Shown piece after piece: positions 54,501-57,500 of a DNA stretch of 64,000 nucleotides (positions are counted from its first letter, which is position 1; every line of letters begins with the position of its first letter). The position numbers were made by a program. Location of the stretch: NCBI RefSeq assembly GCF_056712565.1, contig NZ_CM160072.1. One strand, given 5' to 3'.

Positions 54501-57500
54501 TATCACGGCTTTGAGATTTTCATCGCTCGTGTCTGCCAGCCCCTGTTGTAACTGGGCGGCAGCTTTCTCTAGTTCATTTTTGTCAACAAATTGCTGCGCA
54601 AGTTCCAAAGAAGCCAGCGCACCATAAGTATTTTTATTTTCAGCAGCAAATTTTTCCGCCGCTGGGATGCTATCCGGTTTGCCTTCGCTCACTGCGGTAA
54701 CCGCATTTTGATAGGCAAGAGAAGCGGAGCGTGCAGAATCAACCTGATGGCTGTTCCAGTAGCGCCAGCCAATCAGTGCGCCAACGCCCAAAATCACCCC
54801 AACAGCCAGTGCTTTGCCATTTTCAGCAAAAAAGCGTTTAACCGCTTCAACCTGGTCGTTTTCGTTCTCGTAAATTTCCACGCTGTCCTTCTCCTTCCTT
54901 AACCCAGTAACGTGCGCAAATGCGCGGCTACGCTATCCTGCGCAACTGCAGTTTGCTCACCAGAGCGCAAATCCTTCACTACTGCTGTGCCGTTAGCCAC
55001 TTCAGACTCACCCAGCACCACAGCAACGCGGGCACCCCATTTATCAGCACGGGCAAACTGTTTCTTAAAGTTGCCGCCGCCGTGGTTGGTCATCAGTTTC
55101 ACGCCCGGTAATTCATCACGCAGACGCTCTGCTAATGCCATAGCCGCAGATTGTGTGTCAGCACCTGAAGCCACCAGGTATATATCGACAACAGGATCGG
55201 CTTTAAATTCCGGATTAACGGCCTGAACTAACAATACAAGACGTTCGAGGCCCATCGCAAAACCGACTGCCGGTGTTGCACGACCACCCAGTTGTTCCAC
55301 CAGACCGTCATAACGACCACCTGCACACACGGTGCCCTGGGAACCGAGGCTGTTAGTCACCCACTCGAAAACGGTACGGTTATAGTAATCCAGACCGCGC
55401 ACCAGACGCTGGTTTACGGTGTAAGCGATCCCCGCGCTCTCAAGCAGTTTGCACAGACCGGCAAAGTGCTCACGAGATTCCTCGTCCAGATAATCGCCTA
55501 ATGCCGGAGCGTCGTTGAGAAGCGCCTGCACTTCCGGATTTTTTGAATCCAGTACGCGCAACGGGTTAGTGTACATGCGGCGTTTGCAGTCTTCGTCCAG
55601 CTTTTCTTTATGCTGCTCAAGGAATGCCACCAGCGCATCGCGGTAATTCGCACGAGCTTCCAGCGAACCGATAGAGTTCAGCTCAAGAGTTACGTGCTCG
55701 GAAATACCCAGCGCGCGCCACCAGCGGGCAGTGAGCATAATCAGTTCGGCGTCGATATCCGGACCTTGCAGACCGAAAACTTCGCAGCCCAACTGATGGA
55801 ACTGACGATAACGCCCTTTCTGCGGACGCTCGTGACGGAACATAGGCCCGATATACCACAGACGCTGTTCCTGATTGTACAGAAGACCATGCTCGATGCC
55901 GGCGCGTACACAGCCCGCCGTCCCTTCAGGGCGCAGAGTCAGGCTGTCGCCATTGCGATCCTCAAAGGTGTACATCTCTTTTTCAACCACGTCGGTGACT
56001 TCACCAATCGCACGTTTGAATAGCGGGGTCTGCTCTACAATCGGCAAGCGGATTTCACTGTAACCGTAGCTGCCGAGCACGTTTTTCAGTGTGCCTTCAA
56101 TGCGCTGCCAGATGGCCGTTTCGCCAGGCAGGTAATCGTTCATGCCGCGAATGGCTTGAATGTTTTTTGCCACGTTTATTCTCTTTCTGAATATAAAAAT
56201 GAACCCTCAACGCTTCCCTCAATGTTTCGGGAGCCATGCGGGTTCAATCATACACGGGAAGCGAGGCGCTTCCCATCACGTTATTATTTTTCAACCTGCT
56301 GAACGTCAATTCGACGCGCTTCGTCCAGCTGACTGGCTTTCGCACGAATGCGCGCTTCCAGCTGATCGATCATATCGTTGTTGTCCAGACGGTCTTTGCG
56401 CACGCCATCTTCATAGAGGCCGCTTTTCTTGTTGCCGCCAGTGACGCCGAGTGTAGAAACCAGCGCCTCACCAGGGCCATTCACCACGCAGCCGATAATC
56501 GAAACGTCCATCGGAGTGATGATATCTTCCAGGCGTTGCTCCAGCGCGTTAACCGTACCGATAACATCAAATTCCTGACGCGAACAGGTCGGGCAGGCGA
56601 TGAAGTTGATCCCGCGCGAACGGATACGCAGCGATTTCAAAATATCGAAACCGACTTTGATCTCTTCGACCGGATCGGCCGCCAGCGATACGCGCAGCGT
56701 GTCGCCGATGCCTTCAGACAGCAGCAGACCTAAACCAATAGCGGATTTTACTGCCCCGCTACGCGCACCACCGGCTTCGGTGATCCCCAGATGCAGCGGC
56801 TGATCGATTTGTTTTGCCAGCAAACGATAAGACTCAACAGCGAGGAAGACGTCAGACGCTTTCACGCTGACTTTGAACTGATCGAAGTTCAGGCGATCGA
56901 GATGATCAACATGACGCATGGCAGATTCCAGCAACGCCTGCGGCGTCGGTTCGCCATACTTTTCTTGCAGATCTTTTTCCAACGATCCGGCATTAACGCC
57001 AATACGGATCGGAATGTTTTTATCGCGCGCACAGTCAACCACCATGCGAATACGCTCTTCATTACCGATATTGCCAGGGTTAATACGCAGACAATCGACG
57101 CCGTATTCCGCTACTTTCAGCGCAATGCGATAGTCGAAGTGGATGTCAGCCACCAGCGGCACGTTAACCTGCTGTTTGATGAGTTTGAACGCTTCTGCCG
57201 CGTCCATCGTCGGTACGGAGACACGGACGATATCAGCGCCAACACGTTCCAGCGCCTTGATTTGATTGACCGTTGCTTCGACGTCTGTCGTACGCGTATT
57301 GGTCATGGACTGTACGGCGATGGGAGCACCATCGCCAATCGGCACATTCCCAACGTAAATACGTGTTGATTTTCTACGTTGAATTGGAGCCTGGTTATGC
57401 ATGAAAAATCTCCCGCGTTACCCGTCTGTTACTGCGCCGGTGATTGTTCGGCATTGAGGGTCAGACGCGCAACCTGGTTAGTTCTGATAAAACGACTCAG

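Follow-up and report, generated by a model that had tools for sequence, protein, structure and literature searches.

The window analyzed here, a stretch of 64,000 nucleotides of contig NZ_CM160072.1, carries the genes ispG and hisS with the small RNA gene sroE between them (Table 1). sroE lies on the same strand as both genes, a layout common to E. coli K-12 and 19 orthologous loci. According to the gene calls on both sides, 56174..56283 is exactly the ispG-hisS intergenic spacer. A preliminary description had put this spacer forward as a possible SroE locus, which is borne out by the Rfam match, the K-12 annotation and 100% identity. In both the K-12 annotation and the window, sroE starts at the last base of the ispG TAA stop, a 1-base overlap, and it ends 19 nt upstream of the hisS GTG.

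Table 1. Features of the ispG-sroE-hisS locus (positions refer to the window)
Feature	Position	Strand	Description and basis
ispG, upstream gene, 372 aa	56284..57402	-	NCBIfam NF001540, 528 bits; K-12 annotation
ispG TAA stop	56284..56286	-	Shares the first base of sroE
sroE small RNA, 92 nt	56193..56284	-	Rfam RF00371; K-12 b4761; published SroE sequence
Hairpin 1	56255..56275	-	Closing U.G plus GGGAAGCG-CCU-CGCUUCCC; Rfam structure, folds, alignments
AU-rich single-stranded linker UGUAUGAU	56247..56254	-	Between the hairpins; conserved across Enterobacteriaceae
Hairpin 2	56200..56246	-	Basal stem UGAACCC/GGGUUCA, variable interior; Rfam structure
U-run UUUUUAU	56193..56199	-	Directly 3' of hairpin 2; UUUUU at 56195..56199
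Rest of hisS 5' leader AUUCAGAAAGAGAAUAAAC	56174..56192	-	Reaches to the GTG; holds the purine-rich ribosome-binding region
hisS, downstream gene, 424 aa, GTG start	54899..56173	-	NCBIfam TIGR00442, 523 bits; K-12 annotation
Predicted long-range helix, arm 1, hisS nt 133-147, AUUGUAGAGCAGACC	56027..56041	-	RNAalifold prediction
Predicted long-range helix, arm 2, hisS nt 286-300, GGUCUUCUGUACAAU	55874..55888	-	RNAalifold prediction

The two checks that the preliminary description had proposed, an Rfam covariance search and a comparison with the K-12 sroE coordinates, agree on the identity of the element. RF00371 matches at full length (model positions 1-92 of 92, E = 1.8e-28) with 116.6 bits against a gathering score of 51 bits, and at E <= 10 the spacer matches no Rfam family besides sroE, the one further match being an opposite-strand echo of 16 bits. 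The K-12 ncRNA sroE (b4761, NC_000913.3 2640595..2640686, minus strand) has a homologous, sequence-identical position with the same boundaries, and the window is identical to K-12 at 171 of 171 aligned bases across the locus. Sequence, length, strand, boundaries, flanking genes and two-hairpin structure are the same as in K-12 without any difference; what differs is the host strain, and the window carries a phiV10-like prophage that is absent from K-12. Cloning and Northern work by Vogel et al. in 2003 reportedly lies behind the description of SroE as a discrete cellular RNA of ~90 nt. The 92-nt SroE in a published supplement (PMC6172242) is identical to the window read from 56284 to 56193 on the minus strand. 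The element is, with practical certainty, sroE, the known ispG-hisS spacer sRNA of E. coli and its close relatives, and its identity and position are already catalogued, which makes this an ordinary finding.

The minus-strand hairpin that had been noticed right after the ispG stop is real and corresponds to hairpin 1, which begins 9 nt past the SroE 5' end and has a 3-nt loop. Hairpin 2 has an inner CCC/GGG stem in E. coli, and the annotated 3' end of SroE falls inside the U-run that follows it. Both the minimum free energy and the centroid folds reproduce the Rfam sroE structure. The structure of the spacer goes beyond chance, since its fold has -41.6 kcal/mol compared with -24.8 +/- 3.3 for 200 dinucleotide shuffles of the spacer (z = -5.16), none of which (0/200) is as stable. 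The stem sequence of hairpin 1 is invariant in all sroE-bearing genera, with 8/8 of its G/C/A/U pairs unchanged in 12/12 aligned sequences, while the loop varies freely. The sroE stems show no covariation, and as the pairs are invariant this speaks neither for nor against pairing.

Of 5426 complete E. coli genomes, 5425 carry sroE at a single place each, with an identity never below 95%. In Salmonella, Citrobacter and Intestinirhabdus, the 110-nt spacer has 89-92% identity to that of E. coli, with differences limited to the hairpin loops, whereas fourfold-degenerate sites of the final 100 ispG codons have 41-53% identity in these genera. Since identity of the spacer is ~90% across genera while the neighboring synonymous sites are near saturation, this comparison of sequences indicates that the sroE spacer is under strong purifying selection. 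An exact-pattern genome scan was too strict for wider sampling (it returned 13 close relatives and chance matches in unrelated phyla), and more divergent orthologs were collected through the HisS proteins, giving a comparative set of 19 orthologous ispG-hisS spacers. All ten free-living Enterobacterales sampled have a hairpin A after the ispG stop and then a hairpin B, which is closed by (U)GAACC/GGUUC(A), with U5-8 directly behind it and the hisS GTG 13-30 nt downstream of the hairpin. The interior of hairpin B is unrelated between genera; the basal stem of hairpin 2 is kept and its interior replaced in taxon L029, Kosakonia, Klebsiella, Entomohabitans, Shimwellia, Rahnella and Serratia. The hairpin B of L029, pared down to a minimal stem-loop, is called as a terminator by a scanner. 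In the hisS leader, the spacer alignment shows AGAGAA-N5-GTG kept in nearly all sampled taxa. The two-hairpin, terminator-like layout beside hisS therefore persists across the Enterobacterales, past the range of the Rfam sroE model, and a terminator-like hairpin that goes with hisS forms the conserved core.

A consensus scan of both strands over 55800..57600 found no sigma-70-like site. Two weak promoter candidates found by hand, TTGACG-15-AATAAT and ATGGGA-18-TATGAT, were rejected as either not conserved or below threshold, and the -35-like TTGACG inside ispG varies at synonymous sites. Rahnella and Serratia have a good promoter embedded in hairpin B (TTGAAC/TTGAAT, 18-nt spacer, TATAAT; 10/12), and E. 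coli lacks the hairpin B segment that carries it. The Cappable-seq and SMRT-Cappable-seq supplements have no entry at the ispG-hisS locus. At the other end of the RNA, a simple terminator scanner made no call on E. coli hairpin 2 and its UUUUU. Internal loops interrupt the stem and its base is A/U-rich; these features suggest a weak terminator. Among the 3' ends given in the listed portion of the Adams et al. 2021 Term-seq tables, none falls at K-12 264057x-264060x, which may reflect weak termination at the site or a product under the thresholds of that study.

We favor a reading in which the main action of the sroE element is in cis, as a structured terminator/processing module between the cistrons of the ispG-hisS transcript, and give it a probability of about one half. 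Transcription of ispG would meet hairpin 2 and the U-run, which would act as a leaky intrinsic terminator, and only part of it would continue into the essential hisS. The 5' end of SroE, at the ispG stop, would come from endonucleolytic processing and not from a promoter, a step for which the missing promoter motif is part of the basis. Shielded by the two stable hairpins, the fragment between both ends would accumulate as SroE, and the AU-rich linker and U tail would allow it to be picked up by Hfq. SroE itself is in our favored reading a stable by-product of the cis module. We infer termination, processing and a main role in cis from the evidence above and from transposon mutagenesis, in which sroE insertions are not tolerated in Salmonella Typhi and Typhimurium (PMC3632133), an intolerance that the authors of that study put down to the position of sroE 5' of the essential hisS. 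Both hairpin 1 arms, like the linker, have a sequence that is fixed beyond what pairing demands. A role in structure alone would not predict this, and it hints that a protein or another RNA may recognize them in a sequence-specific manner.

It is possible, though on balance unlikely, that SroE is instead a trans-acting Hfq-associated sRNA, whose UGUAUGAU linker or 5' tail pairs with distant mRNAs and for which the site beside hisS is merely the place of production. The layout is of the Hfq type, with a 5' hairpin, an AU-rich single-stranded linker, a terminal hairpin and a U tail, and both linker and stems are conserved in sequence, but no (ARN)x Hfq motif was found in SroE. SroE is listed among the Hfq-associated sRNAs of nitrogen-starved E. 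coli (PMC12539622), and its level is down 1.75-fold in a Klebsiella hfq mutant (PMC3136514); however, "SroE" reads in RNA-seq and RIP-seq are indistinguishable from the hisS mRNA leader. Of ten predicted targets, nine showed no binding to SroE in vitro, and the tenth, the ligB mRNA, was reported to bind weakly (PMC6172242). Nor is a role in trans favored by the lack of a phenotype upon over-expression in biofilm or motility screens, or by expression that shows no significant change over the nutrient and growth conditions tested; this housekeeping-like behavior fits the cis reading. Finally, the terminator-like module upstream of hisS is also present in genera without the SroE sequence, which ties the conserved part to hisS and not to a distant target.

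SroC (from the gltI-gltJ spacer) and CpxQ are processed sRNAs derived from an operon spacer or a 3'UTR, and both are known for validated targets in trans and for clear phenotypes. SroE resembles them in originating inside a same-strand mRNA, in having a 5' end that is off a promoter and a 3' end at a hairpin and U-run, and in being listed among Hfq-associated RNAs. Unlike them, SroE is without a validated trans target or phenotype, and its 3' module follows the downstream hisS even where the SroE sequence is missing.

Barquist et al. 2013 (PMC3632133) proposed a T-box-like analogy for sroE. In this proposal and its variants, the spacer would be a hisS leader that senses tRNA-His or HisRS, either T-box-like or as a tRNA-mimicking operator like that of thrS, and would switch the terminator-like hairpin or hisS translation; we consider this improbable. 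Like T-box leaders (RF00230) and the thrS operator, the spacer is a structured RNA 5' of an aminoacyl-tRNA synthetase gene, and it is consistently 5' of hisS, with sroE required in TraDIS (PMC3632133). That hairpin 1 and the linker do not vary in sequence points to a specific ligand, and excess synonymous conservation runs on over hisS codons 1-100 in the sroE-bearing genera. Unlike T-box leaders, however, the spacer has no model match, conserved specifier, tRNA-acceptor pairing or preferential complementarity to tRNA-His: T-box, His-leader and other cis-regulatory Rfam families gave no match even at E <= 10, and pairing of the leader with tRNA-His (-43.0 kcal/mol) compares with -41.6 to -49.6 kcal/mol for tRNA-Arg, tRNA-Leu and tRNA-Pro controls, with 95 of 300 shuffled leaders as good. 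The candidate His codons (CAU) at SroE positions 47 and 61 are missing in L029, Klebsiella and Kosakonia, as is the second copy of GGGAAGCG that might allow an alternative fold. Small ORFs in the spacer are likewise not conserved, with a stop at codon 5 in C. sedlakii and no start codon in three genera.

An intrinsic terminator (attenuator) upstream of an aminoacyl-tRNA synthetase gene is exemplified by the pheST leader. The sroE spacer is like attenuators of the pheST type in its hairpin and U-run directly upstream of such a gene and in the read-through that an essential gene would need for its expression, and unlike the pheST leader in having neither a conserved leader peptide with cognate codons nor a conserved antiterminator pairing. 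Three candidates for such elements were rejected. First, GGGAAGCG occurs twice in E. coli SroE, in the 5' arm of hairpin 1 and on the 3' side of hairpin 2, so that CGCUUCCC could pair with either copy; a switch of this kind was rejected, as L029 lacks both the second copy and the entire hairpin 2 interior, and in Klebsiella, Kosakonia and Entomohabitans these parts differ. Second, a leader peptide over hairpin 1 (AUG GGA ... UGA, 10 codons) has no His codons and no Shine-Dalgarno sequence, with a premature stop in C. sedlakii and the frame lost in Kosakonia. Third, a His-rich ORF in an alternative frame (56237..56097, minus strand, 46 aa, 7 His) begins inside hairpin 2 without a Shine-Dalgarno sequence, and its start codon is found only in the Escherichia/Salmonella/Citrobacter clade and in none of L029, Kosakonia and Entomohabitans. 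With no leader peptide and no antiterminator, regulated read-through is unsupported, and hairpin 2 may be a fixed, leaky terminator.

The weakest alternative, that SroE is a functionless nuclease-resistant degradation remnant or a REP-like palindrome, draws on its filing under "REP" by RepRanger (PMC12306157) and on more than twenty years without a demonstrated function, and is very improbable given the strong purifying selection that ~90% cross-genus identity represents; the REP or dispersed-repeat form of it was rejected on the single place per genome in the E. coli set and on hairpin 1 having no second copy in the window, where the other match has 3 mismatches and 0.34 are expected by chance.

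A separate observation concerns the 5' part of hisS itself. Codons 1-100 (55874..56173, minus strand) show excess synonymous-site conservation in the sroE-bearing genera, with a fourfold-site identity of 0.69-0.82 compared with 0.43-0.58 elsewhere in the gene (Fisher p 2e-5 to 9e-3); distance-matched pairs address phylogenetic distance as a confound. Four causes were rejected: global RNA stability (z = 0.03), optimal-codon bias (codon usage in this region is C-ending and non-optimal), protein hyper-conservation (genera that lack the constraint conserve the HisS N-terminus just as well) and a rut-like C>G composition (C/G <= 1.15). The constraint may be functionally linked to sroE or independent of it.

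This region also contains the two arms of a predicted, conserved long-range helix (Table 1). The Term-seq data of Adams et al. 2021 place a 3' end at hisS nt 142 (window 56032), inside predicted arm 1, and a very strong one at nt 293 (window 55881), inside predicted arm 2. The two ends face each other across the predicted helix with a 3-nt 3' stagger, and the synonymous constraint stops at the nt-293 end, a published but undiscussed RNA 3' end. A search for compensatory changes in the divergent 429-aa hisS allele found 7-9 of 15 pairs retained, so that the helix is lost there and gains no covariation support; a literature search found no paper linking RNase III with E. coli hisS. A tentative and rather unlikely extension of the cis reading is that SroE would be the 5' part of a ~400-nt cis-acting unit of the hisS mRNA (55881..56284), extending from the ispG stop to about codon 98 of hisS, that would be under RNA-level selection in sroE-bearing genera and end at the very abundant nt-293 end, with the nt-142/nt-293 helix as if cut by a nuclease specific for double strands, such as RNase III.

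The identification of sroE carries little weight in itself, since the RNA has long been in Rfam and the K-12 annotation and the copy here is identical. The T-box-like idea for sroE and hisS lacks support from the comparative results. If the ~400-nt unit were true, a leader-plus-ORF processing switch would govern HisRS synthesis in enterobacteria, a type of control that, to our knowledge, is not described for aminoacyl-tRNA synthetase genes. The residual value of the locus is that SroE, one of the old "Sro" RNAs, immediately precedes the gene of an essential aminoacyl-tRNA synthetase, and that the way E. coli regulates this gene is poorly understood. The likeliest of the readings, at about even odds, is that SroE acts locally on the expression of hisS.

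The spacer between the minus-strand genes ispG and hisS (exactly 56174..56283) carries SroE, a known, annotated small RNA. An Rfam 15 search of the whole window returns sroE (RF00371) as a full-length match at 116.6 bits (gathering score 51; E = 1.8e-28), and no second credible family emerges from 55800..56400 even at a permissive E <= 10. In the K-12 reference, the ncRNA sroE (b4761) lies at 2640595..2640686 (-), overlaps the ispG stop codon by its final base and stops 19 nt short of hisS; the match has the same geometry, and 171/171 aligned positions are identical to K-12. The published 92-nt SroE (supplement of PMC6172242) equals the window minus strand without a difference. 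The preliminary description had placed a possible SroE locus here, and both checks that it proposed, the covariance search and the comparison with K-12 coordinates, bear it out; the identification was correct and nothing in it is new. Of 5426 complete E. coli genomes, 5425 carry the locus exactly once, with at least 95% identity throughout. None of the listed RefSeq E. coli records (H1-H23, annotated by PGAP) has an sroE feature at the matching position, and only the curated K-12 record has one, so the RNA is unannotated there though present in nearly every genome.

Gene order is as in E. coli K-12, with rodZ upstream and yfgM downstream. The spacer (about 110-111 nt) folds at -41.6 kcal/mol compared with -24.8 +/- 3.3 in dinucleotide shuffles (z = -5.16), and 0/200 shuffles fold as stably. 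The minus-strand hairpin noticed earlier just past the ispG stop is thus real and beyond chance.

Features of the ispG-hisS region, with side features of the window and two related loci
Feature	Position	Strand	Remarks
ispG	56284..57402	-	372 aa; NCBIfam NF001540, 528 bits
sroE (RF00371) match	56193..56284	-	full length
Hairpin 1	56255..56275	-	GGGAAGCG-CCU-CGCUUCCC plus closing U.G pair; starts 9 nt past ispG stop
Linker	56247..56254	-	AU-rich, UGUAUGAU
Hairpin 2	56200..56246	-	basal stem UGAACCC/GGGUUCA, internal loops, inner CCC/GGG stem
U-run	56195..56199	-	UUUUU
Rest of hisS leader	56174..56192	-	19 nt; holds hisS ribosome-binding region
hisS	54899..56173	-	424 aa, GTG start; TIGR00442, 523 bits
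46-codon ORF	56097..56237	-	alternative frame
Constrained hisS segment, codons ~1-100	55874..56173	-	fourfold-site conservation
Predicted helix arm, hisS nt 133-147	56027..56041	-	AUUGUAGAGCAGACC; RNAalifold
Predicted helix arm, hisS nt 286-300	55874..55888	-	GGUCUUCUGUACAAU; RNAalifold
Embedded sigma-70 promoter, Rahnella	L032 1136..1165		ispG-hisS spacer
Embedded sigma-70 promoter, Serratia	L033 1134..1163		ispG-hisS spacer
phiV10/epsilon15-like prophage segment	~980..24000	+
isrK	2097..2173		Rfam match
C4 antisense RNA	2192..2278		Rfam match
tRNA-Arg(UCU)	20817..20893		in prophage segment

Elsewhere in the window, the prophage segment matches Escherichia phages phiv142-3 and phiV10 and O157 typing phages 9 and 10 at ~97% identity, with 58-59% of the query covered. 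Its isrK and C4 antisense RNA matches lie beside an anti-repressor gene, and it also carries a tRNA gene.

Nineteen orthologous ispG-hisS junctions were compared. An exact-pattern genome scan supplied 13 (Escherichia, Citrobacter, Salmonella arizonae, Intestinirhabdus), 8 of which entered the quantitative comparisons, and 10 came from DNA around HisS orthologs, chosen independently of the RNA (Salmonella, an enterobacterium at locus L029, Kosakonia, Klebsiella, Entomohabitans, Superficieibacter, Shimwellia, the insect-associated reduced genome ESL0689, Rahnella and Serratia). A two-hairpin layout folds in all 10 free-living taxa (z = -2.1 to -5.2), the first hairpin just 3' of the ispG stop, and the second closed by (U)GAACC/GGUUC(A) and followed directly by U5-8, 13-30 nt before the hisS GTG. 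Hairpin 1, with an invariant stem sequence, and the linker are restricted to Enterobacteriaceae. The sroE model scores only 53-81 bits in L029, Kosakonia, Klebsiella, Superficieibacter and Entomohabitans, a drop due to replacement or deletion of the hairpin 2 interior, and finds no match in Shimwellia, Rahnella or Serratia even at E <= 1. Judged by this distribution, the old part of SroE is evidently a portion only, not the whole RNA. In L029 the counterpart of hairpin 2 is a minimal stem-loop that a terminator scanner calls a terminator. In Rahnella and Serratia this counterpart contains a 10/12 sigma-70 promoter (TTGAAC or TTGAAT, 18-nt spacer, TATAAT) with its predicted start in the 3' arm; transcripts from it, lacking the 5' arm, would escape termination. 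The promoter-bearing segment is missing in E. coli.

The terminator-like hairpin tied to hisS is the deeply conserved part, the annotated SroE 3' end falls within the U-run, and the 5' end coincides with a stop codon and has no promoter motif in front of it (a scan of 55800..57600 finds no consensus promoter). These three features therefore favor a reading to which we give a probability of about 0.5, that the spacer is a cis-acting intercistronic module of the ispG-hisS transcript and SroE its accumulating fragment. Hairpin 2 and the U-run would act as a leaky intrinsic terminator for transcription coming from ispG, the 5' end would be freed by endonucleolytic cleavage at the ispG stop, and the fragment with both hairpins would accumulate as SroE, which Hfq could bind. 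Such a module fits three observations: insertions are not tolerated (through polarity on hisS), expression is constitutive, and trans targets are lacking. Barquist et al. scored sroE as "required" in their transposon mutants of two Salmonella serovars (PMC3632133), and its level showed no significant change over the nutrient and growth conditions tested (bioRxiv 2024.06.20.599902). Three points weaken it. The terminator scanner does not call E. coli hairpin 2, the available Term-seq tables of Adams et al. 2021 contain no 3' end where SroE ends, and the sequence of hairpin 1 and of the linker is itself invariant, beyond mere pairing, which suggests a sequence-specific partner.

SroE is repeatedly called uncharacterised in the literature, and RepRanger labels sroE "REP" (PMC12306157). 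It may still be a genuine trans-acting Hfq sRNA, though we consider this unlikely. SroE is among the Hfq-associated RNAs of nitrogen-starved cells (PMC12539622) and is 1.75-fold lower in a Klebsiella hfq mutant (PMC3136514). Of 10 predicted mRNA partners tested in vitro, ligB alone bound SroE, and weakly (PMC6172242), and over-expression left biofilm, motility and fimbriae unaffected (PMC4606813).

Barquist et al. proposed, without a test, that sroE is a cis-regulatory leader of the essential hisS, perhaps T-box-like (PMC3632133). A leader sensing tRNA-His or HisRS is more doubtful still, since no T-box or His-leader model scores in 55800..56400 (Rfam, E <= 10), and neither candidate specifier codons, nor short spacer ORFs, nor the duplicated GGGAAGCG that could underlie an alternative fold are conserved across genera. 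Predicted pairing of the K-12 tRNA-His with the leader is no better than that of tRNA-Arg, Leu or Pro, and no better than its own pairing with shuffled leaders.

That SroE is a functionless remnant is very improbable; judged by sequence identity, the spacer is evidently under strong purifying selection. In Salmonella, Citrobacter and Intestinirhabdus the 110-nt spacer keeps 89-92% identity to E. coli, and in E. albertii 96%. For the fourfold-degenerate sites of the last 100 ispG codons the same comparisons give 41-53% identity. The spacer differences fall in the two hairpin loops.

Sequence constraint runs on past the hisS start codon in genera with an sroE match. At fourfold sites they match E. 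coli with an identity of 0.69-0.82 over codons 1-110 and of 0.43-0.58 over codons 111-424 (Fisher p = 2e-5 to 9e-3). Shimwellia, Serratia, Rahnella and ESL0689 show no significant contrast between the two segments (p > 0.19). Distance-matched pairs confirm this apparent constraint (0.75-0.87 vs 0.46-0.60, p = 1.6e-5 to 8e-4; genera lacking sroE, 0.63-0.72 vs 0.45-0.56, p = 0.04-0.12). Third positions in the segment are atypically C-ending (42% C vs 22% in the remaining gene), which rules out optimal-codon bias as the cause; protein conservation, C>G rut-like composition and global folding energy were also ruled out. The hisS start is also crossed by a 46-codon ORF with 7 His codons, whose AUG lies inside hairpin 2. 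This start codon is limited to Escherichia, Salmonella, Citrobacter and Intestinirhabdus and has no Shine-Dalgarno sequence, and the ORF was judged a by-product of the hisS reading frame. Superficieibacter sp. (L036) and Citrobacter amalonaticus ku-bf3 (L025) have a typical sroE, yet a divergent 429-aa hisS allele (N-terminus VSKKIQSV, 5-codon insertion) with its junction at or near the start codon, which suggests allele replacement by recombination downstream of sroE.

The constraint fades near codons 98-104, just where the Term-seq of Adams et al. 2021 has a very strong RNA 3' end inside the ORF, at K-12 2640283 (hisS nt 293, window 55881). This end appears in at least two listings (scores 276,771 and 224,198), on par with a strong terminator of the same table, and was scored as not Rho-dependent and left undiscussed; a further 3' end lies at nt 142 (window 56032, -). 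A conserved predicted long-range helix pairs 13/15 positions in E. coli and 14/15 in most genera, and in it the two ends face each other with a 3-nt 3' stagger. This is near the 2-nt overhang of RNase III (PMC6212723), not exact, and suggests cleavage by a double-strand-specific RNase. Even Shimwellia, Rahnella and Serratia keep 9/10 third positions of both arms unchanged (binomial p ~0.02 each). The 429-aa allele does not preserve the helix and so gives no compensatory proof, other hisS duplexes reach similar predicted energy, and the accessible literature holds no link of RNase III with E. coli hisS. The predicted helix and staggered ends are a lead, short of a finding. The identification of SroE is itself ordinary and of low interest; what remains of interest is its function and the possibility that the hisS mRNA begins with a larger processing unit, of which SroE would be the visible tip.
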